Shown here: positions 3,229-58,382 of the stretch, piece after piece
Position numbering within the stretch: the first letter of the stretch is position 1
How the letters are laid out: every line of letters starts with the position of its first letter
From: Antedon mediterranea
Lineage: Eukaryota > Animalia > Echinodermata
DNA length: 64,000 nucleotides
Assembly (NCBI RefSeq): GCF_964355755.1
Contig: NC_092678.1
Coordinates: 4,294,422-4,358,421, forward strand
Direction of reading: 5' to 3'
Translations under genes and position numbers: made by a program
Notes under the pieces: model-generated
Told to the model about the DNA's origin: nothing
Databases searched by the model: none
Seen by the model: only the letters and a program-made list of their open reading frames with translations

Positions 3229-3374
3229 AGCTCTGTTTACACTATCAAACAAGTTTGACAAAAATGTGTTGATGTGCCCAAATATGGTAGTGATATGACC
3301 AAATATGGTAGTGATATGACATTGACATCATTATATCTATATATGGGCACATCAAATGTTTTTGTCACATAAAG
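3229..3374. mobile_element. MITE family A, partial copy (Harbinger-like, 21-bp internal repeat)
   Basis: Left end AGCTCTGTTTACACTATCAAAC plus CCAAATATGGTAGTGATATG units shared with copies at 6784, 10525, 18429, 48258 and 55240. Confidence 0.75.
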
Positions 3375-6986: not shown

Positions 6987-7540
6987 AAGGAAATATGAAA
7001 TTGGTTGGAGTGGCATGAGAAACTCAATCCACAGATAAACAGGGGCACTTTTTTTATAACATTTTAAGTTCAACAAACAAGTTACTTTGACCTTGAAAAG
7101 AAAACCAGTGAACACATTCAACATCATGCTCTACTTTTTTTAACGAAAATAACATTTACTACACTCATGTGTTTTTGTAAAATTTTGACCTTTTCTAAAT
7201 CTTCAAAACACACTTAAATTTGCATTTTAAACTCACTATATTACATTAAGTATTCTGAAAAAACATGTCACAAGATAAAAACAAAATCACAAATCTATGA
7301 CAAGCTAATTTTCAGCATTTCTGAATAAAAATTTCCAAGTGGGCGTTAACATGTTTATTATTAAACTACACTAAGTTCATAGAAGATGGTGTTCACTTAT
7401 CTATGGAAATCTAGCAATCAATTAATTGAAGATAACTCATTACTACTACTTGAAGTAAATGTCAAGAAAACAAATTCATCAAAACAACTTGTTTTGCTAC
7501 TTAGCAAAATGCATACAAAATATAAGGTAGGTATTTTTCC

Positions 7541-8503: not shown

Positions 8504-9398
8504 GATGAAGGTGAGGAAGTTGGATGAAGGAGTGGGATTCAAGGAAGGAGAGGGAGTTGGATGAAGGAGGGAGAGTTGGATGAAGGAGATGGGATTCAAG
8601 GAAGGAGAGGTAGTTGGATGAAGGAGAGAGGATTCAAGGAAGAAGAGGGAGTTGGATGAAGGATGGAGAGTTGGATGAAGGAGATGGGATTCAAGGAAGG
8701 AGAGGTAGTTGGATGAAGGGGATAGGATTCAAGGAAGGGGGGAGTTGGATGAAGGAGAGGTAGTTGGATGAAGGAGATGGGATTCAAGTAGGAAAGGTTG
8801 TTGGATGAAGGAGGAGAGATTCAAAGAATGAGAGAAAGTTGGATGAAGATGGGATTCAAAGAAGGAGAGGAAGTTGAATGAAGGACATGGGATTCAATGA
8901 AGGAGAGGTAGTTGGATGAAGGAGATTGGATTCAAGGAAGGAGAATGAAGGAGAGAGGATTCAAGGAAGAAGAGGGAGTTGGATGAAGGATGGAGAGTTG
9001 GATGAAGGAGATGGGATTCAAGGAAGGAGAGGTAGTTGGATGAAGGGGATGGGATTCAAGGAAGGGGGGGGGGAGTTGGATGAAGGAGAGGTAGTTGGAT
9101 GAAGGAGATGGGATTCAAGTAGGAGAGGTTGTTGGATGAAGGAGATGAGATTCAAAGAATGAGAGAAAGTTGGATGAAGATGGGATTCAAAGAAGGAGAG
9201 GAAGTTGAATGAAGGACATGGGATTCAATGAAGGAGAGGTAGTTGGATGAAGGAGATTGGATTCAAGGAAGGAGAATGAAGGAGATGGGATTCAATGAAG
9301 GAGAGGTAGTTGGATGAAGGAGATGGGATTCAAGATAGGAGAGGAAGTTGGATGAAGGAGTGGGATTCAAGGAAGGAGAGGGAGTTGGATAAAGGAGA
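8500..9398. repeat. Compound purine-rich satellite (GTTGGATGAAGGAGA / TGGGATTCAAGGAAGGAGAG modules)
   Basis: Alternating ~17-21-bp modules forming ~38-bp units; a ~330-bp block is duplicated. Confidence 0.93.
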
Positions 9399-9465
9399 TT
9401 TAATTTTTAATTCAATTTTTGTATATATAAAATGTAAACTCTGAAATGAAAAATGATTGACTTAC

Positions 9466-11482
9466 TTTCATGTTGAGACTGCAAATACTTATGTTATCGC
9501 CATCCTCGTTCCGCTTCCAACGACTTTTTGAAGGCTGAAACATAAATACAGATTTAGAGATGGTTACGGAATGCGCCAAATTTCTTTATCATGCATTTCA
9601 TTCTCTGCTACATTATATATACATCCATTTTTATCTTGTTATATAATATTTATTTGTTTAGTAAAATATGTGTGTATGTAAAAAGCCATATGAAGGATAA
9701 CATGAATGTTAATATCATTAAACGGTTCAATCATTTAACCTTTCATTACTGTACACAATGATCTAGAGTTCAAATGTGCACTTAATCATTTGACATTGCA
9801 CATAACAGTAAAGGTTTAAAGATTTGAAAAATGATATAAATGATATTAAAATGATATAATTAAATACTAAAATAAATAAAATAATAAATTGGGCATTACA
9901 AGGGTAATTCATCGCTCTCATACAAGAATAAGTATATTATTTTAGGTATAGTGACATTAAATAAGGCCAAGTACTGTAAAATTAGTTTCCTCATTCATCA
10001 AATTTTAGAGCCGCATGAACACTTTAATAAATAAATAATGTGAATGGCTGTACACATTTTCAATTGCGTATGCCCATATTTATCTTACTAATAGCCAAAT
10101 TGACTTGGCCTAATGTGACTATAGTTACTTACCTTTATGTTAAGACTACAAACACTAATATTATCATCATCACGATTACTTCTTTTTCTGGAAAATGACT
10201 ATAAAATAAATAAACTTTGTAAACTAATTAAAGAAAACAAATGATATTTGATCTAATAAAGAGAAAAAAATTACTAATAATTGTATACTAATACAGTACT
10301 AGTAAAATTAGGAACCAAGTTTGCTTTGAAATATTTTCTCAAAATTTTCTAAAAGTACATACCCCATATCGGAAGAAGCTACTTCCCTCTTCTTGTTTGG
10401 CTTTCTTCTGCAAAGAAAATACACATTTCTAAATAACAAATACAAAGTGGGGCACCACTAACTAAGGTTACATTTTCCGTGAAACGAACAATAGGTAATA
10501 TATGAGTCCTAATAGTGTAAGCCTTGTGATGTGCCCATATATGGACAGGATGATGTCATATTACTACCATATATGGAGATATCACTTCCACATTAGGGGA
10601 TATCGCTACCATATTAGGGGATATCAATACCATATATGGGTATGTTTGATAGTGTAGAAAGAGCTTAAAACTATAATATCTTTGTAAGACGGTTAAACTT
10701 GAATTGTTCATATCAAGTCCTGACCTGTTGGTTTGCTCCTGATGGACTATCACAGATATCAGGCTGATCTTCCCGTTTTCTTTTCCGATCCTAAGAAAAA
10801 GAAACAAACATTAAGTTCAATGAATAGGAAATCTAAACTTGTCAGATTTATTGTAACATTTAGTTAAGTAAAAATAAAGCAAAGCAAACTAAACAACTCA
10901 TAATCTGGTTGGAAAAAATTTGGGAATGTCCCACCCATTTCCGTCCATTCGACAAAATGATCTTACCCTCAAATCCATACTATGAACGCTGGGGCTGCGT
11001 TCTTTGAATGAATCTAGACTCTTTCTTTTCATCGCTGGTTTGGTTTTCTTTTCCACTGTGTTCTGAGTTTCTTGCTGTTTTTGAATGTCCTGTTGCCATT
11101 GGTAATGCTCTTCTCTTCGTTTCTTCATGTACTCAAGTCTATCCTTTCTGTTTTTTTCTTCCTTTGCTCTTTTCTTTTTCCGTGGCTGAAAATTAAGTTA
11201 AAAATATACTTAAAATTAGCACAATCTGGCAATAACACATGGTTTTCTTTCCAATTTTATTAAATAAGTTGATATATTTTTATCACTATTTTTGTCTCAC
11301 TTAAAAAGAATTAGTTCTTCTGATTCTACATTCCATTTTGTACTTACTGGTGGTATAGGACACACATCTTTCTCATTGTTGGTAACTGGTGAGCCATGTA
11401 GCGATGAATGAGAACCTCGGGAAGACATGGACCATAGAGAAGCTCGCGACGATGAAGGTTTCAGTGATGTCCGTTTTGACAT
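9466..11482 (-). CDS. Unidentified multi-exon charged/low-complexity protein (>=200 aa, last exon not located)
   Basis: Six GT-AG exons joined in phase 0: 11482-11348, 11185-10967, 10790-10725, 10407-10363, 10198-10133, 9534-9466, giving MSKRTSLKPSSSRASLWS...PRKKKRAKEEKNRKDRLEY...DRKRKREDQP...KKAKQEEGSSFFRYG SFSRKRSNRDDDNISVCSLNIK PSKSRWKRNEDGDNISICSLNMK. In-frame stop just upstream of the ATG. Confidence 0.7.
10525..10665. mobile_element. MITE family A copy (intronic, partial)
   Basis: GTGCCCATATATGGAC...21-bp units...GTTTGATAGTGTAGAAAGAGCT terminus. Confidence 0.75.
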
Positions 11483-13969: not shown

Positions 13970-16900
13970 ATGCCTGCAATAAATGTAAGTTCTTAATGGA
14001 TTTTTGATTTTTAAACCAGTATATAATTAAATAAAGCTAAACATTTTTTCTAATTTATTCTGACAAAAATGCTAGGCTAGGCCGGCTAATAACGGCTTGC
14101 ATTGTTTGTGACTCTCTGTGGCGGAGCGGCAGCGGTTAGGTATTGTGTGGTAGGTAAAAGATAGGCCTAGCTAACTTTTATAGCCTAATGTTGTTCAAAA
14201 ACTTTTTATACATGTATAAATTGTTATTTTTACCTTTTAAACCTTATTTTAGCCACATTCAGAATACAAGAAAAAGTTTCGTTGGCATGATTCTTTTAAA
14301 TCTGCATCGTTTACGCCAACAAAACAGCAATCTGCAGAAACTGCAGGCTTGTCATCTTTTGATTTTGGTAAATATAACTTAAATATTCACACTGCACTTA
14401 TTAAGTGTATTATTAATAATATAGGCTAGTAAAGCCACATACTAAATATTAGTATTACTAGCCTATTATATATGTTATGCGCGATTTGAACGATTTGCGC
14501 AATTTAAAATTGCGCAAAAAAATCCTTGCGCAATTTGAAATTGCGCAAAGAATTCTTGCGCAATTTAAAATTGCGCAAGGATTTTTTTGCGCAATTTCAA
14601 ATTGCGCAATCAACTTGCGCAATTTCAAATTGCGCAAGAAAATCTTTGCGCAATTTTAAATTGCGCTGCACAATTTGTAAATTGCGCAAGATAGTTCTTG
14701 CGCAATATGACACCTTTGCGCAATTTGAAAACGAACTGTAAATTTTCCCATACATGGCTAGGCCTAGGCAGAGGAGTTTAAAATTTAGTATTTTATTATA
14801 TAAATAAGACCATTTCAATGAAGATAATGTTTAATACTCACTTTTTAAGTTTTTAATATTAGTTTAATAAGCTAGGCCATGTAACCTAGTCAGTATCAGT
14901 AGTCCAGACCCTAGCTAGGCTAGAGTAGTATAGCCGACCGCCCGCGCCGCGCCCGCCTGGTGGAACACCACCGCTTCGTTTTCCTTCGTCGGTTCTTCGA
15001 CGGTATGCTAACTTATAACAATATTTGCACTACTAAAATAAGGAAATGCGATATTTATCTTTAATTTTGAATCATTCTTAGAAATTACTATATAAATATG
15101 GGTGTGCATGATTTCACAATCTGTCGAAAAACCTTGCGCAATTTGCAGATTACTTGCGCAATTTAATACGTTGTTTGCGCAATTTGAAACACATGTTTCA
15201 ATTCAAATTGCGCAAGGATTTTTTTTGCGCAATTTCAAATTGCGCAAATCGTTCAAATCGCGCATAACATATATATAAAGTACAGTAAAGGCCTTGCACT
15301 GATGAAGGGCTAGTGTTGCCCGATAGCTCTGCTAACTTTTCTGGCTGTTTTACTTCTCGTTTTGATTTAGCTTTTCGCTTTTATTTTGTATCTCCATTGA
15401 GATCCAGCCACTGATACCCACAGCATTGTCAGTTTTTCAGTAATTTGCCTTTGGATTTATAAAGTAAAGGCCATGTATTGTACGGTAGTAAAGTTGTAAA
15501 CCAAATTTAATGGCTCACATTTGTATTTCCAATGCAAATAGGAAATTAATCACCAGATTACCTGAAAGATCATCAAGCTTCAAAATTAATCAAATAGGAA
15601 TTATAATACAGTAATGTATCTCTTTAATTATTTTTTCAGCCAAAACATTTGCAAAAGTACGGGAACCAGCTCTCCAACATAAGAAGCGGCCGAACTTTGA
15701 AACAACGTATAGCACTCGGATCCTTCCAGAACCGCTGGTAGGACATGAAAATGACGACCTGCAGCCTTCGCCATTGAAGTCAGCATTACGACATCCCCCT
15801 AAGGCAGCCCCTACTAGGCCTAGGAATGATTCTAATTTCAATAATAATTCAAAAACGAGGTTTGTTTGATAACTTTTACCCACTGTCCAAAAAAATTGGT
15901 TGGTAAATTTATAGTGCTTAATATTGTTTTGTTTTTTTAATTTCTTTATTAATTTAGTACTTTATCATATAATTTTAGGGTAATTTACAGCAAGAAAGAC
16001 AAGGAAAATGATCTTGCAAGTAATACACAAAACTTAGTGATGGACAAGAAAAATGAGGACAAGCAAGGAACCAGGAATGAAAAAGAAAAGAACGAGGTTA
16101 GACTCATGCTCTGACAAGTTTGATAGCAAGCTCATGCAATGCAAAACCAAATGTGTAACTGTAAATTGTCAATAATAGGAAACTCAAATACATTAACTCT
16201 CCTAAAGCGTACAACCCAAATTATGAATAGAATTTGGGTATTTAATAATGTTAAATTCCGAGCTGACTTTACTACTGACTGTAGGTGCACTCTTCTGGGT
16301 GGTTTCCTCTTCTAAAGTTTCTATCTGGAGTTTTAGGGTAGTATTCAATTCATCTAATAGTAATAATGTGTTATAATAATTTACATAAACTTCAGGTGAA
16401 CAGAGCTATGCAATTCCAGGCTGGAATAAGAGCACCACAATCAGGAGGTCCCAAATACAACACAGAGTATCAGCGACAGTTTGCTTGGAAAAAACCAATA
16501 GTTAAACAATCACCATTAATTGCTGCTGAACAAGTAAGGGTTTTTTATTGTCTTTATTGTAGTCAACTTTTTACTTGAACCAGTTAAGCACGGTTTACCA
16601 ACAAACCAACCTGAGCAAACTAGTGATAACAATAACTCAGTCACTTCCAGAATTCTTAAACTTTTCCTAAACTTTTCAGATGGTTTATAGTTCAAATACC
16701 AACATATCCCCATATGTTCCTGACAAAATTCAAAGAAGCAGTGAATACCAAAACCAATTTCAACCCTGGAAGATACAGGGTCCCAAAAATGAAAGAGATA
16801 AACTGAAGAAAATTGCAGAACGGGAAATCAAGGCAAAGTACAAAATTAGAAATAAGGTTTGTACTCTATAACATATATTCAAGTTGTTAAGTACTTTGAT

Positions 16901-19900
16901 ACTAATACTAAAGATACCTTGGGATCTTTATATGTATTTGATGTTTTTTTAAATATCTCTTAGAAAAAGAAGAAACGTTTATCTCCAGAGAAAATGACAG
17001 CAGCTGGTGTGCCATCAACTATTGTTCATGAAGATCCAGGTCTATTGAAAAGGATACAGAATCCACAAGCACCGTTCTTTCCACACGCTAGTCTTAAGTA
17101 AGTTCTATCATATAAATTTGTCTTAAGTAATTTCTACCATAACTTACACATATTAAAGATCATTCTTAAACCACTTGACAGGCAGTGTACAACCATCATA
17201 GAATGGTTTAACCAAAACCAATGAGAGAAACTGGTAATGACAGAAGATTCACTCTTTATGCTTCTATTTTGGTCTTGTTACTTAGAAAATGGAAATCAGA
17301 ATACAACTCTAACTTTAAGTCTCCAGCCAAATTCAAGTACAGTCATGGTGCCTGGAAAGGTGCGGATCCCCCTCACATCCAACCAAGAGACGATAGTTCT
17401 TACAGAGGTCAAATAAATGATAAAGGAGATAATATTCAGACATCAAATAATCAAACTTGTCCAAACTGGTTTAAGGAGGTTTGTCTAGTTATGTATTTGG
17501 TTCTTTTCTTCAAATTTCTTTTATGTATTGATAGCAGGCAATAGTTTTGAAAGAATAGAAATTAAAAGGCAAACACCAAACAAGCAAAATGGAAGAAAAA
17601 ACCTGTATATAAATGTTGTTTTCCATTGTTTTATTATATTGTATAGGTAGCAGAGTTAAGAGAACGTGCAAAACAGTACAAAAAACGTGCTAGAGGAACG
17701 CATTTCTCGCGAGAACATCTGGCGCAGTTATTGGCAGAACAAGCTAAATTATGGGATCAACCAGCAGACAATGGAGATGATACCACCAACAAAAATGACA
17801 AGGACCAGAATATGTATGTACAGTGGGAATTGATAAATTTTAAATAATTATATACACTTTTTCTGTAGTGTAAGTTAGATGAGACATCTCCGCTTCAACT
17901 TTTCTTGTTTGAAATTTAGAATATTTTTATGATTTAGGGTTCCAGCAGGCAAAGCAAGCAACCAAGATGATCTAACGCCACATGTTGAAACCAGTGAAGA
18001 TGATACAGAGAAACCAACAAGAAGGAAGCTAGCCTGGGGCAGGAAGAATAATCAAAATGATAACAACAATGATAATGCTTCAAGGTATGGTTAATGAATT
18101 GCTACAGCTAGAGTTCTATTTTATATCTCCAATTTAAAGCACGAGAAATTATAAAATAGTTTATCCATCCTGTAATTGGTGAGTTACTCGCTGTTGGATG
18201 CGTATGGAATAAAAAAAATACTATTCTTCTTTAGTATTGGTAGCATCCCAACGCCTCCAGACCAGAGAGATTCAGTTTCATCCAGTAGCAACTTAGAAAT
18301 CACTGATGAGAATGGAAGAGTGCCTACACCAGAGCTGCCAGATAAAGGAATCAAACGAAGACACCACTTTGATAGAACCACGCCATATACAGGTACAGTA
18401 GGAGTATAGAAATAATGTCATTTCTAAAGCATTATCAAACTTTGTGTGACAACAAAATGTGATGTGCCCATATATCGATATGATGATGTCATATCACTAA
18501 CTATATTTAATCATATCACTACCATATTTGGGCACATTATACTTTTTTTTTAAACTAGTTTGATAGTGTAGACAGAGCTTGAAAACATTGGTAAAATATT
18601 GACAGCTTGAGTAATATTTACATTTAGTAATGTAGATAGTCTAAAGTTTTGAGAATAATGTTGAAGTTTTTAACGATATCATTTTGTTATTTTCTTTATA
18701 GGTGGTGCTTTATTAACATCACCACAACCATCAAGAATTGCAGTTGTTTCGTCGCCAGTTCCAAAAGACCCACTAGCTGAACCAATCTACAGACCTGGTA
18801 ATCGTGAATATGCCGTTGACAAGTCTCCACCTCGGTACAAAGGAGGTACTGTGATAGTTTAATTTTGGCATAAAGTTGGCCCTGCTTCCCTCAAAGAAGA
18901 ACATAAGTGTATAGAGCTTGAAAAAATCTTATTAGTTTTTTATAATTTTTATTTACAGGACGTATAAAACCAGGTATTACATATAAAAAGGATCAAGGCA
19001 GTAGTGATGAATGCAACAACGATGATGACGATGTCACACCGGTAAAAGCGACTTCACGCCCATCAAAAGCGACAGAGGTAAGTCAATTGATAAAGTTGTA
19101 CCAAAAACTGTTGCATCATGATGTATTACTTGCACACTATCTCAATATTGGAGACCTTGGGAGACTTTCTGGTTTCAGACTTTCTGTTTTTAGGAGAATC
19201 AACAGTACGTTTTGTCTATTGTATTTACTTGTTTTGTTTTAATTTTCAAGCCTCTTGCAGCATCGCCGACAGCAGGGGTAAGATCTAGAGACCCAGACCC
19301 GTTGAACGATGATTTGTCCGAACATTCATTCAACAGACATTCCAATAACTACTTCCAAACAAGTCCTGGTGTGAAGTACCTCCCAGGTACAGGTTCACCA
19401 CCAAGAACGTGGGCAGCTCCACGTCAACAAGCAATACACAGGGAACAAACTAGGCCTAGTGGAGGTAACAAACACATTGGATATAGTACTAGTCTATCTT
19501 TAGGAGAAGGGTTGGTGAATCCACCAGTCAGGAGTTCTTCTCATGGCAACTTGTTTACAAGCAGATTGTCTGAATAGCACCCCTAGACAACTTGTTTACA
19601 AGCAGAATGTCTGAATACCACCCCTAGACAACTTGTTTATAGGCAGAATGTCTGAATAGCACCCCTAGACAACTTGTTTACAAGTAGAATGTCTTAATAG
19701 CACCCCTAGACAACTTGTTTACAAGCAGAATGTCTGAATAGCACCCCTAGACAACTTGTTTACAAGCAGAATGTCTGAATACCACCCCTAGACAACTTGT
19801 TTATAAGCAGAATGTGTGAATAGCATCCCTAGACAACTTGTTTATAAGCAGAATGTCTGAATAGCACCCCTAGACAACTTGTTTACAAGCAGAATGTCTG

Positions 19901-21058
19901 AATAGCACCCCTAGACAACTTGTTTACAAGCAGAATGTCTGAATAGCACCCCTAGACAACTTGTTTATAGGCAGAATGTGTGAATAGCACCCCTAGATGA
20001 CTTGTTTATAAAGCAGAATATCTGAATAGCACCCCTAGACAACTTGTTTATAGGCAGAATGTCTGAATAGCATCCCTAGACAACTTGTTACAAGCAGAAT
20101 GTGTGAATACCACCCCTAGACAACTTGTTTACAAGCAGAATGTCTGAATAGCATCCCTAGACAACTTGTTTACAAGCAGAATGTCTGAATAGCACCCCTA
20201 GACAACTTGTTTATAGGCAGAATGTGTGAATAGCACCCCTAGATGACTTGTTTATAAAGCAGAATATCTGAATAGCACCCCTAGACAACTTGTTTATAGG
20301 CAGAATGTCTGAATAGCATCCCTAGACAACTTGTTACAAGCAGAATGTGTGAATACCACCCCTAGACAACTTGTTTACAAGCAGAATGTCTGAATAGCAT
20401 CCCTAGACAACTTGTTTACAAGCAGAATGTCTGAATAGCACCCCTAGATGACTTGTTTTGTCAGCATGTTCATGTCTGTGGGACTGCCCAGGTGTAGAGC
20501 ATACATAATACAGTAGATTGATAGAAATTGTGCATGAATTCAATTATGGTTATCTTTCATATCCTAAATCTAAAGGAAAACAAACCCAGGAAACGAGCAT
20601 ATTAGGGTTGGTGCTTGAAAGTTGTTTAAATACGGTACTGAAGATCCTTGATTTCAAATATTCATATCTACTCTTCTTTCTTATTTACAGGTCCTTTAGA
20701 TAAAGCACACACTAAAAACCTGCAAGGAAGACCTCTGACAGCAAAGCCGATGTCACGTGACCAAGCTAACCAGATAGAGAATCAACTATCAGATGACGAT
20801 GTTTCATCCATGTCCTCTGCCAGACAAGCGCGGGGAAAGTTAGCAGCCAAATCTACAAGAAATTCACGCCCAAGGACTGATCACACTAGAGACAATATAC
20901 ATCCATCTTTGGGCGTATCGAAATTAGACGATAGTCCGTCTAGTGATCAATTGTCCGCAATATCAAGTGTTTCCAGTTGTTCATTAGCGTCCGATATACT
21001 TGATCGAGCACGGAACCGAAGGGACAAATTTTGGGGAAGTAGTGGACAGACTAAATAA
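13970..21058 (+). CDS. MDM1: Nuclear protein MDM1 (centriolar microtubule-lumen binding protein), ~15 exons
   Basis: MPAIN|PHSEYKKKFRW...EPALQHKKR; repeats TEYQRQFAWKKP, SEYQNQFQPW, SEYNSNFKSP; WFKEVAELRERAKQYKKRARGTHFSREHLAQL; C-terminal SSCSLASDILDRARNRRDKFWG, all matching MDM1 motifs. Exons ~13970-13984, 14253-14367, 15640-15859, 15980-16096, 16396-16533, 16680-16857, 16964-17098, 17286-17478, 17647-17813, 17939-18084, 18235-18392, 18702-18847, 18959-19078, 19251-19463, 20691-21058. Confidence 0.92.
14473..15269. mobile_element. Non-autonomous TIR element with TGTT...AACA termini and TTGCGCAA subrepeats, in MDM1 intron 2
   Basis: TIR TGTTATGCGCGATTTGAACGATTTGCGCAATTT / AAATTGCGCAAATCGTTCAAATCGCGCATAACA inserted in (TA)n; about 20 TTGCGCAA palindromes. 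Confidence 0.85.
15294..15461 (+). mobile_element. Penelope-like pseudo-LTR repeat, copy 1 (hammerhead core mutated GAAA>GATA)
   Basis: Near-identical to the reverse complement of 44685-44854; begins GCA-CTGATGA-A-GGGC...GCCC-GATA-GCTC-TGC. Confidence 0.75.
18429..18579. mobile_element. MITE family A copy in MDM1 intron
   Basis: TATCAAACTTTGTGTGAC...TATCACTACCATATTTGGGCAC...GTTTGATAGTGTAGACAGAGCT. Confidence 0.8.
19547..20457. repeat. 41-bp minisatellite (CAACTTGTTTACAAGCAGAATGTCTGAATAGCACCCCTAGA)n, ~22 units, last MDM1 intron
   Basis: Head-to-tail units with no spacers; a ~6-unit higher-order block is repeated. Confidence 0.98.
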
Positions 21059-34455: not shown

Positions 34456-37400
34456 TTAACAGTTCGAGTTGTCAGTATCGCACGATGATGTCACTTGATT
34501 GAAGTATAAGCCAGAAATACACAAATGGAGAGTTGATACACCATCGTAGCATTGATAGAATTTCTCACAGTCGTCTGGATTTTCATAGAAACCATTTGCT
34601 TTACCGCTGCATGAGAATCCTGTTGAAACCTGAGCTGCCACTTGGACTCCTTTGCACTCCAGAAATGCTGCCTGGCTACAGTAAGAAGGGGGGTTGTTGA
34701 ACCCACAAATGTAAAAACGCCCACAAATGTGAAAACAACCACAAATGTGAAAACGCATCACCCACAAATGTGAAAACAACCACAAATGTGAAAACGCATC
34801 ACCCACAAATGTGAAAACAACCACAAATGTGAAAACGCATCAACCACAAATGTAATAAACAGCGCCCACAAATGTGAAAACGATCATCGCCCACAAATGT
34901 GATAACGCCCACAAATGTAAAAAAAAATGAGAATTTTTCGGCCACAAATGTAAAAAAAAAAAAATCAGATGAAATTTAATGCTAGACTCAAACAATTTTG
35001 ATCGAGGTACTACATTATATCATGATTGTATTGAGTTGTTTCAATAATTGTTTGTTCACGATACGTCTGTTAGGGTCGTGGTTAACACGTTGGATTATTA
35101 TAATTTTCTGCTCATGCGCGCGATATTTGCACGTTAACTCGTTTAATGAACGTAATAGTTCAAGACGATATTTGTTATTTGCTGCGCGCGTGCACGATAC
35201 TTCAAGGTCAAGGCCATGTTATATCATTGTTGCTTCTACTGGTTATTATAGTTATTAACTCGTTGGCTTACTGTTAAATGTACGTATAGTTCCAAGTCGA
35301 TGCTCGATTCGATGTTTTTTTTGCGCGCACACGATACAACAAGGTCAATGTTAAATTGCTACTTGTATGTAGTGTGTGGTTATTAACTCGTTGGCTTACT
35401 GTTATGACTTCTAATGCTCATACAATTAGTGTTATAGGCATCTCCAATCAAGTGTAAGCCTACTATTAGTAGATAACATTATTTAATCGCATTGCAACTC
35501 CTCCTTAAATATTTTGTTAGGTAATTCATGAAGCCAGTTTGTTCCTCATTAACAATACCGTTATACCTTGTACGTTGACTTATTTACTTATAATTATATT
35601 ATACATAAAAATTGTCGAATATACGTTTGATAGTAAATCAGTTAAATTGTAATGCATTCAATAGGTAATATTATTCTCCGTATATCTTTATAATTATCCG
35701 CTAAAAATAGATATACAAATTAAACAATAAGCATCAGATTAAACCACGAATGTAAATAGTAGTAGGCCTATAGTAGGAAGTTTTGTCCATTAGTATAATT
35801 GTTATAGATTTCATAGTATGTTTTATAGAATACATGTTCGTGACAAGTTTGATACTATCGTATCGTGTATTATGTTTGGTTGGATATTGGTGTTACGGTA
35901 TTATTCTATGTTACAATTTGTTTATCGCTCTAAAATAAAGAAATATTCTTTTATTAGTTGTTCTTGCTCTAGCTCTTGTATTATTATCTTGTGGTTATAG
36001 TTTTGTAAAAAAATTGAACATTAGGAACTACTGCAATAACTGAACGACGAGTATAGCATTGATCTTGTAGTATCGTGTACACCGAGCATCGACTTGGAGC
36101 TATAATACGTACATAATACTAATAAATATAGTAAGCCCAACTGCACTTCAAGCAGCAATGATATATGACCTTGTAGTATCGTGTACGCGCCCAAAAACAT
36201 CGAATCGAGCATCGACTTGGAACATACGTACATAACAGTAAGCCAACGAGTTAATAACCACACACTACATACAAGTAGCAATTTAACCTTGACCTTATTG
36301 TATCGTGTGCGCGCAAAAAAAAAATATCGAACATCGACTTATAACTATACGTACATAATAGTAAGCCAACAACCACACAGTAGAAGCAACAATGATATAA
36401 CATGGCCTTGACCTTGTAGTATCGTGCACGCGCGCAGCAAATAACAAATATCGTCTTGAACTATTACGTTCATTAAACAAACGAGTTAACGTGCAAATAT
36501 CGCGCGCACGAGCAGCAAATGATTATTATCCAACGTGTTAACGACGACCCTAACAGACGTATCGTGAACAAACAACTCAATACAATCATGATATAATGTT
36601 TGTCTGAATCTAGCATTAAATTTGATCTGATTTTTTTACATTTGTGGGCGAAAAAGTCTCTCTTGTTTTTACATTTGTGGGCGTTATCACATTTGTGGGC
36701 GATGATCGTTTTCACATTTGTGGGCGCTGTTTTCACATTTGTGGTTGATGCGTTTTCACATTTGTGGTTGTTTTCACATTTGTGGGTGATGCGTTTTCAC
36801 ATTTGTGGTTGTTTTCACATTTGTGGGTGATGCGTTTTCACATTTGTGGTTGTTTTCACATTTGTGGGCGTTTTCACATTTGTGGGTTCAACAGGGGTTG
36901 TTGGCATCAAAGGCGTAGTAGGACGAGCACCGGTGATGTCCGGGGACTCCTGAAGAACAGTTATAGTACCACTCACACATTCCAGTGAAGGGGTCGGGAT
37001 AGATACCATCATTTTTACCAGAGCAAAACGGGTCAGAGTTTGCCTGAGATGCTGAAATATACAACAGTGGATGATTAGATTTTACGGTGCCTGGTAGATC
37101 CAGAAATTTCACACATGGGGTAGGGGGGGGGGGCGGCTGGGTGACTGTAGGCATCACAAATAAAAACACTATACATTTTTATTAATAATTTATACTATAC
37201 TACTATTAAAATCAAAATTGTGAGGTATTTGATGAATAGGTGTTTATTTGATGATGAGAATAGTTTCTTGAAACATGTCACGGTATCTTAAGGCAGTTTG
37301 CCCGTTCATCAAATGCCTAACAATTTTGATTTTAACCCGAAGGTTTGGTGGTATCATACATGATTTATACTAAGTTACTTTAACATTCACAATTGAATGA

Positions 37401-38666: not shown

Positions 38667-40081
38667 TACCTCCGCCAAGGAGGTATATGCAATCGGTAGC
38701 GTGTATTTGTTTGTTTGTTAGTTGGATTACTCAAAACGTAATTACTTTACCAAAATGAATATACAGATAGATATGTGGTCAAGGACCATTCCACTAAATT
38801 TTGGGACCATTTTGGACTATGGTCCCAATTCTGGACCACTTTTTAGTATACTTTTCAGACCTGCTAGTGTTAAAAGATAGGACAGAATGTTTCAAAAGCC
38901 GGCGAGCAGTCTTAAAGTGAAACTGAAATTGCATTTTCTCGAGAACTACTTGTCAAAAAAACTTAATTTTTGTACAAGAGGCAAGAGTTATAATTTGTGA
39001 TTTCTAATTTTAAAACATAACTTGTTTAAATGTGCACGTTTTTTTACGCGAGTAGTTTAAAAACATATTTCTTTTCAAATTCACAGTTTGTGTTTGGTGC
39101 AACACATACCCCACAAACCTTAATAAATTGCATACCCTCCAATAGAAGGCTATCAGAATTATATCTGGCGCGCCTCCGCTTTCCCATTCCTCTCATTTAT
39201 TTTCAAATCTTAATCTCATCAAACTTAATGATGATATCAATTTAATTCAACAAACCATTTTTGTCTACTCTGCCTTAAACAACATCCTTCCTTACCATCT
39301 TTATTATCTTTTTACTTCCAATTCCTTCTTTCATTCCCATCACACACGTACTAAAAATAAATTATCTATACCTTCCCATAGAACAAATTCTTTCCAACAT
39401 AACATTCGCTACTCTGGACCCACCCAATGGAACAACCTACCACCCTCCATTTTAAAATCTGCTTCCCCTAAGATACTTATCTCAAAATTTAAATAATACA
39501 CCTTTTCTACTTATTAAATGTTTATTAATCGGTCATGTCTCGATCTGCAGTACCAACAGATTTATTTTTTTTCTGTTATTCATATTTTAGATTATGAAAT
39601 TTATTATTATTTTTATTCAATGCATTTCTTTTCTCTTTTATTTGTTTCAAGGCTCGCCCATCACAAGATGTTTACCAACATCTTCCCGGGCCCTTTGCCT
39701 TCATTTTCTGAAACATATTTTTATAATTCTGTACAATCCTGTTTCTTGTTTTCCTATGTATTCAGATTATGTAAATAAATGTCTATTGAATCATAGAGAT
39801 AATAATAATAATAATATCTCTATGATTGAATGAATGAATGAATGAATGAATGATTTTCGCGTTGCTGTTCTATTGTTAGTCAACTGAAGCTATTGTTAAT
39901 TGAAAGGCTTGTTACATAACCATTACACCAAACTCGCATACACAATGCTTGTAGTGAAATTAGCCTAAATCACAAACAGCATTAAGACACACACAGATAT
40001 ATATATATATATAGGCCTATATCTCTTTTTTTTTTTACCGGAGAAATTTTATGTAGGAGAATTTTACAGTAGGCGGAGGTA
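38667..40081 (+). mobile_element. Helentron/DINE-like non-autonomous element carrying a nested LINE fragment
   Basis: 5' TACCTCCGCC-AAGGAGGTA hairpin followed by (TTTG)n; matching inverted subterminal GGCGGAGGTA at 40072-40081. Confidence 0.55.
39090..39852 (+). mobile_element. 5'-truncated L2/CR1-clade LINE
   Basis: Translates KLHTLQ*KAIRIISGAPPLSHSSHLFSNLNLIKL...HHTRTKNKLSIPSHRTNSFQHNIRYSGPTQWNNLPPSILKS, typical ORF2 C-terminus; 3'UTR stem-loop and (AAT)n/(TGAA)n tail. Confidence 0.8.
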
Positions 40082-40213: not shown

Positions 40214-40330
40214 CACTGAAGATTAGTGCTACCAAAAAACAATTATTTTACTTTCTCGTTTTGATTTAGGCCTAGATTTAATTATTTGTATCTCCATTGA
40301 GATCTAGCCACTGATATCTACTGCATTATT
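40214..40330 (+). mobile_element. Degenerate third copy of the hammerhead-bearing repeat
   Basis: CTCGTTTTGATTTAG...TGTATCTCCATTGAGATCTAGCCACTGATA shared with 15294-15461; ribozyme core decayed. Confidence 0.65.
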
Positions 40331-41092
40331 TGTTTTTGATTTAGTTTATTTCTTAAGAAATAAATTTATACTTTATGATGAGTTCGTGTTATACATTTCT
40401 TTTGTGATTTCCGATATTATACACAATAGTTTACTGTACTTATGTTACATTGATTTATACCTATTGAAAATACATTTTGCCTATATTTAATTTGTGCTGT
40501 TGTTGTAGTAGTAGCCGTGTTCGTGCAAACAATCAGATAACAATAATAATAATCATAGCAGGATGGAACCAATGCTCAATAATGACAGTTAAAAATCTTT
40601 TCCGATAAGTTCCTAGTAATATGCGCTTTATCCGATTATTGTTCTTTGTGTTCATAAGAAGATAGTAAACGATAAAGGAAATGATTAACTCAAACTCGAT
40701 GGGAGTGCAAATCGATTGAATCAATAGCTCCAAAAACTGTGATGTATTTAATATGCAAAACTATACTTATTTTCTTTCATCAACATTTAGACGAAAAGCA
40801 CATTTAAAACATTAACATAAGATTAATATTAAAGTATAATTAAATTTCCGATCGTAGCAAACTTAGGCAACTCATAAAAATTAATAACGAGGTAACAAGA
40901 TGTATTAATCACTGGACTAATTTATAGAAATAAATAAATAAATAAGGATGTACCTAGATAGTTTATTTATACAAAACCTGACAATACGAGTTTCAAACCT
41001 CATTTAGATTTCACTAGAAATAGTCATTTAAAACATTTTAACCACTGTTCACATTGTGCGCTTTAAGTTTGTTTTCTTTTGAAGCATACTCG

Positions 41093-44106: not shown

Positions 44107-47100
44107 ATGGCGCGAAATGGGCTAGCCTCTGTGTCGAAACGCAACCTGAAGCTTGAGAATTTCCTGAAGGTGAACTTAGCCCAGGATGTCTTTGACCGCG
44201 TACAGGCCTACGAAGCCTGTATTGTAAACTCCGCAAAAGAAAAAAAGGCTTTTAAATTTAAATATGCAGTTCTTGGGGATGAACGCCTGTATATTACAGA
44301 AAATCCACCAAAAGTTATTAAAGAAGAAGAAAGCTTACACCTTCAAGATGTAATTGCCATAACATTGGTAAGAAAGTAAATTGTTTGTTTTTGTTTGTTT
44401 GTACAGTAACTGTACTGCTGTAGTCTGTAGGCCTAGTTGATGTGTGAACAACAATATTATGCCTAATAATAAAATGTGGTTTGTAGTTTGGATATGTTAG
44501 GCCTAGTTAGTTAGTAGGCGTTTTTGCTATCTAATCTAAAGTTGATTGCAAGTTGAAGAATTTATTTTTGAAAAATTACTAAATAAATTAAGCACTCAAT
44601 TAACAATCGCTATATTATTTCTTTTTTGATAATAATGTTTCTCTTATTGGTATTAATAAATTAAATAAAATAATATGTATAATATATAAATCCAAAGGCA
44701 AATTACTGAAAAAAATGACAATTCTGTGGGTATCAGGGGCTGGATCTCAATGGAGATACAAAAAAAAAAGCGAAAAGCTAAATCAAAACGATAAAGTAAA
44801 CAGCCAGAAAAGTTAGCAGAGCTTTCGGGCAACACTAGCCCTTCATCAGTGCAATATATATATATATATATATATAAATCAAAATAAAAAACCTGTTTGG
44901 AAAAACAGTGACATTTTGCACCTCCCCACAGCAAATTCAAAACTACAGTAAAGTATCAACTGAATTTTGTCTAAAGCTATTAATTGTTTTGATGAATGTT
45001 GGTTAGCTTTTCACTATATTGCTTCTCAGGGTCAACAAGTTTAACCTCCAATGTGAACAATTGATGATTCTTGTTGCTATTGATATTTTTATGATGTAGT
45101 TGGCCTTTAATTAATTGATTTTCTCCTAGTAGTATGCTACCGCGCCTAAAAATTTATAGTATTTTTGTTTTACAATAATCACCATGGTAGTGCCAGTAGA
45201 CTGAATGAATGCCTTTATGTAACTGTCACTAAATATAATTACAAGGTTAAGTATAGTCTTTTGATTAGCTCCATAGATGCGTATAAAACAACCTTTCTAG
45301 AGTTTTGTCAATGGGATTAAAATTTGATACGTTTCAGTGCAAACTAATACAGATGTTGTCAATTTGTAATACAGTAGATTACAACACACATTGTTACAAG
45401 TTAATAAATTAAAGTAACTACTAGTGTAAAAAAATAGCAGGTTGTTGTTGGTCTCTATGGTGATAGCAAACGAGATTAGTAACTATTTCTGCCATTCAAA
45501 TCATTCTTTTTAGTAGTTTGCTATAAAGCTTGGTTCCCACTAGAGACGCAACGCAAGGACGTAGACGCAAGAGAGTTAACCAATGACAAGCGACAGTTCG
45601 AATAATCCATCGCTTGTGATTGGTCAAATCACTTAGGTTGCGTTACGTCCTTGTCTTGTGTCTCAAGTGGGAACCAAGCATAATGGCTCAAAGTGGGTGT
45701 GTTTGCTATTTGATACTACATTTACTCAGTTATTATTAATAATATACTAGAAATTGCAAAATATAATTATAATAACTGGAGTTCTCACTAGAAGTTAAAG
45801 CTTGTCTCTTAAAGATCCCAATTACGGACTCAACAGTATAGCAAAAGTATGAATAAAATTTACAATCTAAAAAAAAGTGCAAGATACTCATTTATTTAAA
45901 ATATTTGAGCTAAAGCACTGTGGAGCAAACTATAGTTTGCACTTTTATTCAATTGGTACACAATCTTTCACTTTTTAAAAATATTTAGGTAAATGATTTT
46001 CCAGACTTCTTGAGCGGTGAGGAGCGTGAAAATGCCCAGCACATTTTGATAAAACATTTGCAGGAAAAGTCTATTCCTAAGACACGAAAGAAAAATGTAA
46101 AGAAAGACTCAAACCAGGAAAAGCAAAACGGTAGAAACACACCAGAACTTTGCGTTTCCGATCCTTCTGGGAAAAAATTCCACAGAGATGAATCGGATGT
46201 TGAAGAAGAAGAGAAGAATGGTAGTGGCTTACATCTTAACAGAAGTTTTGATGAATCCGCCCTCTACATGTTAAAACTGGAGGATGAAGTTTCATCCGAA
46301 GGGGAAGATCAATTATCAGTATCACTACCAACCTCCTCATTTAAGACACTCTCAAGTGACCAAAAGTCTGGAAAAGATGAATCAACTTTAAAGTCATCAA
46401 AGCTAACTAAATCATTGGTAGAAAGTGTTGGAACATGTCGTCCTTTACCTCAAAGACCTTTACATAACAAAGACTCAGCCCCACGTCTAGATGTTTCCAG
46501 CACATTTTCAACAGACATTGCTTCAACTTTGGTTAATAGAGACAAAAATTCCAATAAAAAATTACAAATGCGCAACCTTCCCTCACCAGACAGTCCTAAC
46601 AACAAGAAAAAATCAATGCCTTTCAAATTCAATTTGGATGCATCACAATCTAAAGAAACTCTAACAAAGAAAAATTGTGATGGTAATACTAAAAGCCGAC
46701 AGAAAAAAGTGGTACCAAAACAGAGAAGCTTAGATATTGAGATAAGCACTAATGATTCATCTGTGACAACAGAAGAGTTGGAAGATACGACGTTTGTGAA
46801 AGAAGAAGTTGAGACACATCTCTACATTTTGTCACCGTCTTCTACATTTCTCATGCAGTTTCAAAGTACATGGAACAATTACATTATTGTAAGTTTTTTT
46901 TTCTTATTTTTTGGTGTTCAACACGTGACCATAATATTCTAGTATAAGTCAGTCATTCATCATACATAAAATTACAAATACGGTACTTTTTATTTTCAAG
47001 CTAAAAGTATCAAATTCTCAAAATACAGTAAAGTCCTTGATAACCAGAGTAAAGCATTATTTAATTAAATTGTTTAATATATTACAGTTTACGCTATAAT

Positions 47101-50100
47101 GTATTCTATTGTGCTGGTGTGAACCAATGAAAAATCAAGATATTCTCCTCTTTTATGCTGTAATTTATTTATTTGTTCCAACAATAATTTACGAAGGTGG
47201 TCCATCCAGCCGAAGCTGATCATTAGGGACTCTCACAAAAATACAATATGACTATAAACATGCAAAAATTAATATACAGTAAGATATAAAATAAAATAAA
47301 CAATCAAAAAATAGAATCCTTTACAAAAGTCTGCACAATATTTTATCTATTTAAATTATTACAGTACAATACAACTAAAGATATTACACGCTAATAAATG
47401 AACAATTTACTGTACAGCTGAAATGATTGAAAATGATATCATTAAGCTTACTCGGAATAACATCCACTGTTTAGACAACATTCAAGCGTACTACTAGTAA
47501 TACATCATCATTATTACAATAAGGCTGTAAAGAATGAATGTACGATGGCCATCACATTTTGTGTTTCCTTACATCAAGTGTATATTTCCCCAGCCCATAT
47601 AGCTAGTTTTAAATCAGTATGTTGCAATATCATTCTTTAGGTTCAGGTAAGTCTACTCTCATCACTAGCGTACATAAAGATTAACCCTGTAACCACAGTC
47701 TTGACTGATTTCGGTCATGTATTGCTCATTCAAATTTTATAATTATTAAAATTTTTCCAAATTTGATTTCTTTAGCGATCAACAAGAATGTTGGAAAATG
47801 CGGAGTCCGCTGGAAATTCTCTGAAAAAGCCATCAGGTTCTACCAGGTACAGTATATCATAGAGTACTATGTATAAACACAACGAATGTACATTGTGATA
47901 GCTTCTGCATCCACCACCCTACTGTCACAATTTCCATAATTGTCACAATTTTAATCTATCCTAATTTATAATATATTTATGACTCAAATTGGTTTATAAT
48001 GTTATCTGTTTCTTTTGTGTCATCACCTGCCATTTAATACAATATTAATCATTTTTCAAAAGAGTACGTGATACTACTGTAAGTAATAACTTATAAAAGA
48101 TATTTGTGTTATTAATGGATACTACTGTAGTAATCTGATTTCCAAAAGGGAATACAAAGTATGGTTTAGAAAGTTTCAACATTCCAGTTGCTACATCTTC
48201 TGGAGTAAAGTTGACGCAAATAGAAAACATAATCAAGTTTATAAAAAGGTTTAAAGCTAAGTCCAAATATGGTAGTGATATTCCCAAATATGGTAGTGAT
48301 ATGACATCATCATGTCCATATATGGGCACATTACATTTTTGGTCACAAAAAGTTTGATAGTGTATACAGAGTTTAACAAAAATTTGATGAATTCATCGTC
48401 CCAAGATACTGTAACCATCCAGGCATTTTACTTCTTTTCAGGTAATGTCATGGTAGCTACTGTATATAAAGATAACATGAAAGAATATACAGTTATTATT
48501 ATATATTAATAAAGGTTATTATGGTAATATAAATAATAAAATGAGTTTAATTCATTCAATAGACATGGCCATGTGGTTTTAATACACTTTTTTGATATTA
48601 TAGTTATTGAATATAATGAATAAATATTGAACAATAAATTAAGTATGGTACGGTACGGTAATCAATAAGAAGACCAATGCCCTCTAGCAAGTTTTGACAT
48701 TTTGTGGTTATTATATAAAATATTAAATTTTGAATATTCTGTTATCTGACATAATTACATTCTGTTCATAAAAGCTTTCCGTAAAGTAGCAAATTTTAAT
48801 ATTCATACAGGGGAATCTATGAATTGAAAAATATATATATTTTTTTAAATGTTCACGTAAAGATTGAATCACTTATCCTTAGTTAGTACTTTTAAATTAA
48901 ATACTTTTAAAAATGAATGAAAAATATTATGTTGTTCATAACAGCCTTTTTTTGTATGAAAATTGAGATTGTTTGCGCAAAGTGTTTGATTACATTATGT
49001 GTTTTTGACCGACGTTTTAAGATTTACCGAAGCCATGGTGATTGAACAACATAGCATGAGAGAGACAAAAGCTTATTTCTTTAGAACATTGTTGAGGAGT
49101 GAATTTGGTAGCTCTTTGGGGAAAACCGTGTTCGAAGCAAATAATGGATGTGAATCAACTCTGTAGGGAAAACAGCACTTTATAATAATATAATATGGAC
49201 AGGTTTTGTTCAGTAATTACAGTACAATCTTCCACTTATCAATCGATCATTTGTCTTTTAACTGTCGTTCGTGAACAAACTGTAGATGTAGAACAACAAG
49301 CTAGTGAAAAAATTAAAATGCATTCTTATAAACAAAAAAAAATAAATTAGACATTTTATAATACTCTACATTTCATTTAATCTTCCACCTCCAAAAATGA
49401 CTAACATTTAGACCTATTCTATCTTTTCTTCATTGTATGTAGTGCCTGGTATGTTTAATCCCCCCCCCCCCCCCCCCACTTTTAAATTAAGTACAGTGTA
49501 ACCTTCTCATGTCTAAAACACAGACTGAAATATCTATATTGCCTCTCATCCAATCATCAATGGTGTTAGCTTATCATTATCATACTTTAAACAAAGTTTA
49601 TCGGGCAGACGGGCTAAATGTAAATAATATTTTGGAAAATCATGAGGACTAAGTTCATGTTTAAGTTACTGTAGCTCTGTAGCATATCATGGTATTTCCT
49701 AATAGAAGTAGATAAAGTTAGCAATACAGTGTAATTAATTTTTTATGTTTGTTAAAGATGTATTGTCCCCCAAAAACATGAAAAATGAAGATTAATTAAA
49801 TTAGACTTTGAATATGTTATTTTGTAGTTTTAATCAAGTTAATCACTTCCATAGAAAAAAAAAGATTTTTTTTCACTTATGAAATGACAAAATAAATGGT
49901 TAAATTCAACCAAAAATCCATTGGCTGGCAGCCAATTTGACCATTTTTTGCTTTAAATTACATTTTTCTCTGGTAAATACATTTTTTTTTCGATACAATT
50001 TTTGGTCAAAGTGGATAACTATTATGTTACATTAAAATGGAATATTCAGCAAAAATTTTTTTAAGAATTATTTTTTTCAAGGGGACAATACATCTTTAAT

Positions 50101-55239: not shown

Positions 55240-55340
55240 TATACACTATCAAAAAAGTGTGACGTGCCCAAATATGCTGGTGATATGACATCATCATGTC
55301 CATATATTTCGAATACAATTTGATAGTTTAGACAGAGTTT
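55240..55340. mobile_element. MITE family A short copy
   Basis: TACACTATCAAA...GTGCCCAAATATGCTGGTGATATGACATCATCATGTCC...TTTGATAGTTTAGACAGAG. Confidence 0.72.
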
Positions 55341-56650
55341 AAGACATTTTATCCAAATCAAATCTATGTATTTCCTTTAAAATCCTAAATAATGGAAAAA
55401 GAAAATTTTAATTGGAGATGTGCGAAGTAATTCATTATTTCGGTGACCTTTTATCTATAACTCGTGGCATTGTGTTCGATTAAAAGTATAAATTATTTAA
55501 TCAAATGGTATACTCTTCTGTAGGCCTATTGTTGATATATTTCGGTGTGTAGTTTATACTTTTTAAGCTAATACTAAGTATGGTTTTATGTCTTGTTAAA
55601 CTGCATTTAATGTCTTTGTATGTTAAGGCCCATAGACTGAACTTGCCAATAATAATAAAATCAATTTTAATACAGTGATTATATTTTGTCGTTTTTGACC
55701 AATCTACACACAGATTAGGCGCACTTTCTTCACATAGTATACCATTCGTGTCCTAATTTTTCGTGAGATTTGCAATGTACTTATTAGTACGGGTACAAAT
55801 TACGTCGGAGCAAACATTACGCAAAGCTACACCACAGTAGCTACAAACAATGACAATCCGATAAGGATAATGATAAACAAAGAAACGATACATAAAATAA
55901 AAGAAAGGCCAAGTAAGTTGGTCTTAGTGCCATGACGTATGGTTTCATTGTTGACAAAGTACCGTATTGTACTTTGATTGTTCTTTTAGGCTACGATGCA
56001 CTCGTTGTCTTCTCTGTATATTTGTTTTGTGATCATTGACTCGTATAAATCGATATCCAAATCCAGACTGCTTTTATGATACATACATACCTCCTTCCGT
56101 GTTCCAAGTTTATTTGTTATTACCACGCAGTATAGCCTATTTGTACTGGGAATAAGATTTTAACAGGGGGTCTATTTGGGTTACACTGGACCGTTAAGAA
56201 GGATTGCGTTGGAATGTATTTACTTTGACAGCAACCTGATTCACAGCCTTCTCGGCGGGAGAGCAGGTGTTATTTTTCAAAGCTTATTGTAAAATTGTTA
56301 ATATATCTTGATGCAAAGGTCGATATAGGAGGTAACTCGTCGTTGTTAACATAGGAATAATGCAGTGAATATTATAACTATGGAAATGTAGAGGTAATGC
56401 TATGCCATGTTTGATGTGACTGATTGCTTAAATTGGAAAGCATCAAACCAAAGACTTGGAGATTGCGATTATTTCTATACATACAGAATGTTTAGCAGCA
56501 ATGCATAAATAGCCTAAAATAGTGGGTTCTTCAATGATGCTGATACAACTGTCGACTATCAAAATGGCATCGAACTGTAACTAAAAAAGCCACCAGTAGG
56601 CCTAACACTGTTAATATTTTTGCGGTAAACTTGAAAAGCCCGGACGGAAG

Positions 56651-58382
56651 ATGGATAAAGAAATACGTGATCCTTCAGCAGAACTGGTGAAGTCGCTGGA
56701 AAAGTTGAATATCGTGCCATTTAGAAGCACTTCTCAGTTTGATTTGAGAGTGGATTTGAATTATCGACACTTACAGAAGCTGCCTGCTGATGTCTGCAGA
56801 CTGACAGACCTTCAGTGGTTAAATTTAAATGTCAATAGGCTGTTTGATCTTCCAGATGAACTTCAGCAACTTGTTAGATTAAGATGGTTGTATTTAGAAA
56901 GTAACAAGTTCGAACATTTCCCAAGAATTCTTTGCAAAGTTCCGTCTCTTGTCCGTTTATATTTCAGCAGTAATGCCCTGTCAACTCTTCCAACTGATGT
57001 GAAAGATCTCAGATGTCTAAGACTCTTGGATCTTTCAGACAATAATTTTAAAGATTTTCCCTCTGCAATATGCTGCTCAGAATTAAAACTTCTTGACAAA
57101 CTGTTTATAGATAACAATCAATTGAAGTGTATTCCATCTGAGATCAGTAAGTTAATTGGACTTAAGTCACTCTGGATGAATAACAATCAAATAGAATGGC
57201 TTCCGCAAAGCACAGCTGAGCTGGTGAATCTCGAGGAACTTCAGATTAAAAATAACAGTCTTCACGGCTTGCCAGCATACCTTGCCCCCGGATTAAACAA
57301 ACTTACTTCGATAGAATGGGAGGGTAACAGATTAACTCTAGCACTACGAGGACCTATTTCCCGTGGTGTCGGTGATCTTAGACAATACCAGATATGGGCT
57401 AGAGAGATGGCGTTGTCAAAAGAGATGGTTGAATTTCGGAGCAATCGAGAGTCAGGGATGGAGCGTCCATGCTATAGGATGCGAACGAGACCCAGGGGTG
57501 TGGCCGTTATCATAGATAATTTTCCAGCAGAAGACATTAATGAGGACAATAGTGAAACAGGTAAGAGGATCTGGGTGACATTTTGTTAATATGGAGGCGG
57601 TGGATGTCACATGTCGTATTCTGAGCGAAAGACCTCCTACTATTTTTTGAGAACTATGTATTTCTTTAAAGTAATGCAATTTTATTGTTATCTAATTTAT
57701 TTTCACAGACAAGCTTCGAAGTGTTCTGATAAAACTAGGATTCAACGTTCGTATAATGAAGGGATTGATATCCCTCGATATCATATCCGCTCTTCGTTTT
57801 ATATCGATGGAAGATCATCGCTATGTTGACTGTATCGTTGTTGTTCTCCTCTCGAAGGGGTCGAGTAATGCAGGAAATGTCCGAGGCAATGATGCCATCA
57901 AAGTAGAAATACGGCAACTCACAGACATCTTCACCGCTGCCAACTGCCCGACACTCGCAGGAAAACCGAAACTGTTCTTCTTGCAATTGCTAGAAGATAA
58001 AACAATGAAATCAGTTGGGAAGAAAGACAATGATTCTTCTTCTAAAAGTGATAGCTTAAAAGATCTAATACCAGATGAAGAAGATTTTTTGTTGACCGTG
58101 GCAGGTATCCCGCATACGATGTTACATGAATCAAAGACGAGAGCGTATACACTGTACGTTTCGTTATTGTTTGACATTCTGGAAAATTACGCACGTAAAT
58201 TGAACTTATTAGATTTGCTGGCTACGGTACATTCTCAAGTTAGTAATATCCAACTTACTACTGATATAACAACACAAAATGTGTGCCATAATGAAGCCCG
58301 AATTGTACCGTTTATTCAATCATCGCTACGATATAACCTCTACTTAAGCATTTACAATAGTACTAGAGAAAACACCAAGTAA
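56651..58382 (+). CDS. Leucine-rich repeat protein fused to a catalytically inactive caspase (peptidase C14) domain, 2 exons, 527 aa
   Basis: Exon 1 56651-57560, GT-AG intron 57561-57708 (phase 1), exon 2 57709-58382. About nine LxxLxLxxNxL repeats, then CYRMRTRPRGVAVIIDN..DKLRSVLIKLGFNV..DCIVVVLLSKG..NCPTLAGKPKLFFLQLLED..IPDEEDFL..SSLRYNLYL. Confidence 0.9.

Follow-up and report, generated by a model that had tools for sequence, protein, structure and literature searches.

The host gene and the repeat copies

On the plus strand of the window, by which we mean the whole 64-kb stretch of DNA that was analysed, positions 44107..44367 hold the first coding exon of a DUF4551 gene, which matches PF15087 (E 4.6e-21, profile positions 2-75) and ends in a GT donor. 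Intron 1 (44368..45988, +, GT...AG, phase 0) separates it from the next exon, which starts at 45989 and matches PF15087 positions 75-285. Within this intron, on the opposite strand, lies an intact copy of a dispersed repeat that carries a hammerhead at its 5' end (44685..44854, -). BLAST aligns this copy to a second full copy (15294..15461, +) with 93.5% identity over 170 bp, which sets the ends of the unit, and the contig depth described below is limited to about 44670-44858; the length of ~165 bp given in an earlier note on this DNA is thus corrected to 170 bp. Both full copies start 2 bases ahead of stem I of the hammerhead and share their last base, which lies 134 nt 3' of the predicted cut. 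An older partial copy, 79-82% identical and consisting of the body only, was found by BLAST at 40246..40337 (+). A decayed hammerhead sought ahead of it was unconvincing, with 66 of 1,971 random segments reaching the score of the upstream alignment, and was rejected. The window contains no tandem copies of the repeat.

The second full copy lies in sense between exons of MDM1 (matches at 14253-14426 and 16342-16575, +, from a scan that covered 40 of the 66 candidate frames). Its hammerhead core is broken, A14 being T at 15324, a change expected to cripple the ribozyme, so that one of the two full copies in the window has an intact core. The intact copy is antisense to its host pre-mRNA, as the earlier note had stated, with the DUF4551 exons on the plus strand and the hammerhead on the minus strand. 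That the antisense copy is intact and the sense copy broken is a comparison of two copies only, too few to establish an orientation bias.

We looked for features of a promoter in the repeat. The Rfam scan gave no tRNA match there, and neither Pol III A and B boxes nor a tRNA-like head were seen, the boxes being judged by eye against the consensus. The hammerhead strand has several T-runs of at least 4, and no internal promoter is evident in the 170 bp.

The window holds further repeats and genes. The region 14467-15275 is MITE- or foldback-like, with palindromic 15/31-bp repeat arrays and matching 74-bp inverted ends (97%); its arrays are the origin of all the miRNA-type noise in the Rfam scan, and the second hammerhead copy lies 18 bp from its right end. 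A foldback-like structure at 34695-36893, adjoined by a chitin-binding CBM_14 exon (-), consists of a 716-bp inverted repeat (88%) that contains 18/41-bp tandem units. Comparison of the window with itself revealed a further family of short dispersed repeats, whose members contain a 21-bp tandem unit and number at least 6 (3226-3374, 6783-6994, 10525-10668, 18430-18589, 48263-48384 and 55259-55347), and minisatellites occupy 7544-9399 (21-bp purine-rich unit, about 1.9 kb) and 19547-20458 (41-bp unit, 22 copies). The LRR and caspase-domain gene at 56615-58382 has a 100% match, spanning 94% of the query, to a protein of the feather star Antedon mediterranea, which marks the genome as that of a crinoid, and relatives in other echinoderms and a hemichordate. 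At 39146-39853 there is what we take to be a 3' remnant resembling the end of a LINE ORF2, which has no Pfam match and after which come short runs of (ATA)n and (ATGA)n. This LINE-like remnant (~39.1-39.85 kb) was considered as a partner of the hammerhead repeat and rejected, the two sharing no sequence at word size 7.

A minimal hammerhead at the 5' end of the repeat

Read directly, positions 44852-44816 of the minus strand form a minimal type I hammerhead that is complete. Stem I pairs 44852-44850 with 44818-44816 and is 3 bp long; the next position is a U-U mismatch, and one more pair follows. The catalytic core C3-A9, CUGAUGA, occupies 44843..44849 and is separated by a single extra unpaired A (44842) from stem II, which together with its 7-nt loop spans 44827..44841, is made of 4 G-C/C-G pairs (44841-44838 with 44830-44827) and opens with the G10.1-C11.1 pair, G44841-C44827. 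The GAAA segment comes next (44826-44823), and in place of stem III there is the self-complementary AGCU at 44820..44823, the predicted dimer interface. The cut is predicted 3' of C17, at C44819. This is the reading that the earlier note had offered, and it holds position by position: the direct reading puts the predicted cut at the same C, and the palindrome test bears out the reduction of stem III to AGCU.

In hammerhead numbering, 44816-44852 carries the formula of the class, C3UGANGA9 ... G12AAA15.1 ... U16.1 H17, with stem I closing the ends. It also has two traits of the minimal hammerheads of Penelope-like elements (PLEs), namely an unpaired base separating position 9 from 10.1 (A44842), a trait described for that group (PMC4209133), and the lack of a stable stem III together with a palindromic 15.1-16.1 segment (AGCU). 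The G10.1-C11.1 pair is likewise a feature of the group, all of whose published sequence features the stretch shows. Judged by these features, the stretch is, as a motif, a PLE-type minimal hammerhead, its cleavage being predicted.

The earlier note had proposed a motif scan, and the two forms of scan gave different answers. When a structural descriptor required stem III to be palindromic and stem II to have at least 4 bp, it found 44816-44852 as its only match in the 64-kb window, and matched in 2 of 300 shuffles, compared with 4/300 for a weaker palindromic form and 32/300 for the loosest version; the pattern formed by the core and GAAAGCUC likewise occurs once in the window and in none of 100 shuffles. 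An Rfam scan of the whole window returned 21 matches at E<=1, none of them to a hammerhead family.

The folding energy of the motif is no better than that of shuffles (z -0.8 to -1.0). When the motif is folded by itself, both stem I and stem II are computed to be near-certain, with a pair probability of 1.0 for stem II, and in the RNA of the whole 170-nt element the probabilities are 0.24 for stem I and 0.83 for stem II. An intermolecular AGCU duplex is predicted at -2.5 to -3.9 kcal/mol. Unconstrained co-folding of two motif copies exchanged the strands of stem II and did not return the active dimer, so that folding speaks neither for nor against cleavage as a dimer. In published assays, single minimal hammerheads showed no cleavage in vitro and that of dimers was poor (PMC4209133); of 9 dimers from Xenopus, only 1 was cleaved (bioRxiv 10.64898/2026.07.22.740005).

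Abundance, insertion sites and a comparable family

To place the repeat in the genome we aligned to an 801-base stretch the contigs of four of 11 public sequencing runs (X1, X5, X6 and X10). X1 contributed 3,391 aligned contigs, X5 1,443, X6, which is from a second organism, 7,610, and X10 only 4. Depth summed over the element reaches 3.1-7.2 x 10^5 in X1, compared with 22-30 on its flanks; overlapping short contigs inflate this depth, which does not equal copy number, so we restrict the estimate to its order and infer at least about a thousand copies, perhaps ten thousand. The loose ends on the 3' side, at 44681-44683, are AT-rich and agree with one another at 0.45-0.56 only, which points to many unrelated insertion sites and hence to dispersed copies. 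The description of the repeat as dispersed is therefore supported, both by thousands of contigs and by their unrelated AT-rich 3' flanks. No unit-length head-to-tail joint occurs among the 15 joints listed of 36, with the 5' end (44847-44892) masked as repeat.

There were at least 40 rows of substitutions among the contigs; none of those listed falls in 44816-44846 and 23 fall in the 131-nt body, a distribution that, the rows being clustered, is suggestive of conservation of the core. One minor 1-nt insertion among the contigs does fall inside the core. It belongs to a minor variant in 44789-44824, with changes at 44809, 44813 and 44815 and the 1-nt insertion at 44824, of which the change at 44815 would extend stem I. 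This variant is near one-copy depth or absent in X1 and X6, is represented by one low-depth contig in X10 (organism C), and reaches a depth of about 4,150 on 2 contigs in X5, which is an RNA run by guess only. The variant might mark a source locus or be carried by an abundant transcript; depth on contigs measures expression poorly. Separately, 4 long diverged contig pieces among the 28 listed (records 4, 5, 16 and 22, of which 5 and 16 are possibly one locus) have alignments that break off at 44811, some 8 nt past the predicted cut on its 3' side, with at least 30 unaligned letters beyond; this is a weak hint of a truncated class without the hammerhead.

The flanks of both full copies bear on how they were inserted. 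A (TA)n run, the likely target site, adjoins the 5' side of the intact copy (44855..44876), its 3' flank is a decayed TA-rich run, and a TA 7-mer is repeated on either side; by their sequence these flanks fit insertion into a TA microsatellite. The preference for (TA)n sites put forward in the earlier note is thus confirmed for the 5' flank of this copy, and the 3' flanks are AT-rich across the contigs. The second copy is bounded by an exact 10-bp direct repeat (15284..15293 and 15463..15472, +), which we regard as a target-site duplication. Such an exact 10-bp duplication is present at 1 of the 2 full copies, and was found in 33 of 17,534 segments of a random control. Rotifer PLEs are described with target duplications of 8-10 bp (PMC3846280).

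When stem II is left free, the motif also matches 27 metagenome loci (L001-L027), 23 of them distinct once 4 duplicates are removed. They form one family from another animal, which shares the core, stem I and AGCU with the Antedon motif and has a 6-bp stem II (3-6 bp in 22 of the 23 distinct loci). Beyond the core it has no BLAST match to the Antedon repeat, so the comparison is an analogy. The viral and prokaryotic collections gave 6 pattern matches (2 viral and 4 prokaryotic) with a stem II of only 0-1 bp, which we rejected as chance.

In 1 of the 27 loci, L010, the hammerhead stands directly ahead of a Penelope-like ORF on the same strand, with DKG and broken reverse transcriptase pieces including YVDD; in another, L007, an RVT_1 match (E 1.7e-11) lies in inverted position beside the hammerhead. 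A protein atlas search with the L010 ORF gave DUF8422 clusters only and no PLE name, and we call it a PLE because of its DKG and YVDD motifs and the RVT_1 match in L007. DKG is given in the literature drawn on here as a diagnostic motif of PLEs, and such an inverted arrangement as typical of them. Inverted partial copies adjoin several of the metagenome loci.

Twenty loci had enough flank to place the 5' end of the repeat. Of these, 13 begin at most 15 nt from stem I, another begins at 16-40 nt and the other 6 start farther upstream; the pile-up is biased by a search that demanded an intact hammerhead. The 3' ends of the family lie near +85 and +118, about one tail apart, and with these rough end points none of the 17 loci tested has a target-site duplication of at least 7 bp. 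By analogy, then, ordinary PLEs appear to shed pieces with a geometry like that of the 170-bp repeat.

Origin of the repeat

The results described above lead us to an explanation that we hold, on balance, to be probable: the repeat would be the hammerhead-to-tail piece of the pseudo-LTR (pLTR) of an endonuclease-bearing PLE, with uncut RNA as its template and TA-rich nicks as its insertion sites. This RNA would begin a short way upstream of stem I; starting internally, some 134 nt to the 3' side of the cut, the PLE reverse transcriptase would run off the 5' end of the RNA and give a short unit of fixed length. The template would have to be uncut (or circular), because a cut type I hammerhead leaves nearly all of itself on the 5' fragment. 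Integration of the short cDNA would then take place at a TA-rich nick and would duplicate about 10 bp. The lone antisense copy in the DUF4551 intron would be a passenger, and probably a catalytically silent one, because its stem III has no partner and single minimal hammerheads fail to cut in vitro.

Several observations support this origin in a PLE piece: the minimal hammerhead traits, a 170-bp unit that starts at stem I, the dispersal, the AT-rich flanks and the 10-bp duplication. The earlier note had suggested either a solo pseudo-LTR or a small non-autonomous element, a suggestion that these flanks, the dispersal, the duplication and the published traits support, and of the two we favour the solo pseudo-LTR. 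Most published minimal hammerhead motifs are single, dispersed PLE pieces (PMC4209133). In the Poseidon element of Anolis, the hammerhead lies at the junction of pLTR and ORF, and reverse transcription begins some 85-130 nt to the 3' side of the cut; the start is placed at +111-118 and the cut at +26, and another start lies beyond the first by one tail of 30-40 bp. The element's endonuclease favours AT-rich DNA, catalytic mutants were inserted normally, and protein was required for cleavage (PMC11167929). The distances fit the 170-bp unit; as for the optional 30-40-bp 3' tail, both full window copies have the same end base. No parent element was found in the window, which holds no coding remnants of a PLE, tblastn with three PLE pieces giving nothing below E 0.78, and the 170-bp repeat has no ATG-open frame at stem II of the kind present in the Anolis element. 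A further point against a PLE piece is that so uniform and very abundant a unit would also fit a self-propagating SINE-like family.

Such a family, a 'Penelope SINE' of short masters derived from the pLTR and retroposed in trans by PLE proteins, is a possibility that we take seriously while thinking it improbable. The very high abundance in two organisms, the fixed length of the unit and variant sets that are common to contigs and suggest subfamilies all speak for it, and non-autonomous derivatives of PLEs have been published (among others in bioRxiv 10.64898/2026.07.22.740005). It lacks an evident internal promoter, and its T-runs would stop Pol III; as promoter it could use part of the (TA)n target that is TATA-like and is duplicated immediately upstream of each copy. 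In the second copy a TATA-like run does end about 18 nt ahead of the start of the hammerhead core, a spacing that resembles the TATA-20 bp-Inr of a rotifer pLTR (PMC3846280). Against it stands the metagenome analogue, in which ordinary PLEs shed such pieces. A bolder form, which we consider unlikely, would have a ribozyme-headed 'Penelope SINE' propagate from its own short masters by way of PLE proteins, borrow its TATA from the target and keep its hammerhead for a role other than cleavage. If this were true, selection would be keeping the hammerhead in thousands of solitary copies although cutting destroys the copy, and the hammerhead would then need another role, for example as a protein-binding or RNA-start signal.

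It is unlikely that the copies are dispersed monomers of a non-LTR retrozyme, produced from tandem masters by cleavage and ligation of dimers into a circle and then copied at unit length. A length of 170 bp falls inside the 150-450 bp range of such elements (PMC7229834), solo monomers are described as common among retrozymes, on its 5' side the intact copy has a flank similar to the element's own 3' end with (TA)n after it, and a circle would account for the retention of the whole hammerhead. The window is nevertheless without tandem copies, no unit-length go-back joint occurs among the 15 joints listed (with 5 at repeats dropped), and the hammerhead is minimal, with a 3-bp stem I and no stem III, rather than of the canonical type with a 6-bp stem I and loop 1-loop 2 contacts. 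Adoption of the 44685-44854 copy by the host, as a regulatory ribozyme in the DUF4551 intron, seems to us very improbable. This copy is intact and the sense copy in MDM1 has a broken core, but that contrast comes from two copies, the intronic copy is one of very many near-identical ones, the host pre-mRNA is without the ribozyme because the copy is antisense, and single minimal hammerheads showed no cleavage in vitro in the assays reported (PMC4209133). We give just as little credence to a chance match of the motif within an unrelated repeat: the Rfam scan found no hammerhead and the folding z-score is weak, but the strict descriptor is matched in only 2 of 300 shuffles, the motif lies exactly at the end of the repeat, and its stem II has 4 bp compared with the 0-1 bp of the 6 viral and prokaryotic matches.

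Taking the repeat as a PLE piece, we compared it with the known systems that resemble it. Set against the minimal hammerheads in the pLTRs of metazoan PLEs (Cervera and De la Pena 2014, PMC4209133), those of schistosomes and Drosophila have a stem II of 6-8 bp, whereas that of the crinoid repeat has 4 bp. Poseidon of Anolis (PAc; Frangieh et al. 2024, PMC11167929) is alike in having its hammerhead about 90-130 nt upstream of the 3' end of the insertion and in its AT-rich targets, and there an uncut RNA template would fit; in PAc, however, the ORF begins at stem II and continues, whereas the crinoid repeat is without an open frame. With the non-LTR retrozymes of animals (Cervera and De la Pena 2020, PMC7229834; Li et al. 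2026, bioRxiv 10.64898/2026.07.22.740005) the repeat shares its short, non-coding, low-GC sequence, its type I hammerhead, duplications longer than 4 bp, a relation to PLEs and the occurrence of solo monomers; retrozymes are defined by tandem arrays, usually canonical hammerheads, and circular RNAs, whereas the crinoid copies are seen solitary and with a minimal hammerhead. The SINE-like hammerhead elements of schistosomes (PMC6765202) are also abundant short retroposons with a hammerhead, but they place a Pol III promoter before a canonical hammerhead, and in the crinoid repeat the hammerhead is itself the 5' end and no tRNA-like head precedes it. Placed in this way by the features of its sequence, the crinoid repeat would work like a solo pLTR piece. 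We found no crinoid family of minimal hammerheads in the literature searched, and the supplements to PMC4209133 and to the bioRxiv report could list echinoderm families.

The class of minimal hammerheads has been in print since 2014, and the crinoid repeat adds a taxon to it, not a new kind. It bears on the puzzle of why PLEs retain hammerheads at all, given that monomers do not cut and that cleavage is dispensable for insertion in vitro. Young, abundant and sharp-ended, the family is good material for mapping the start of the RNA and the start of reverse transcription, and it is also suited to testing for selection on the hammerhead core.
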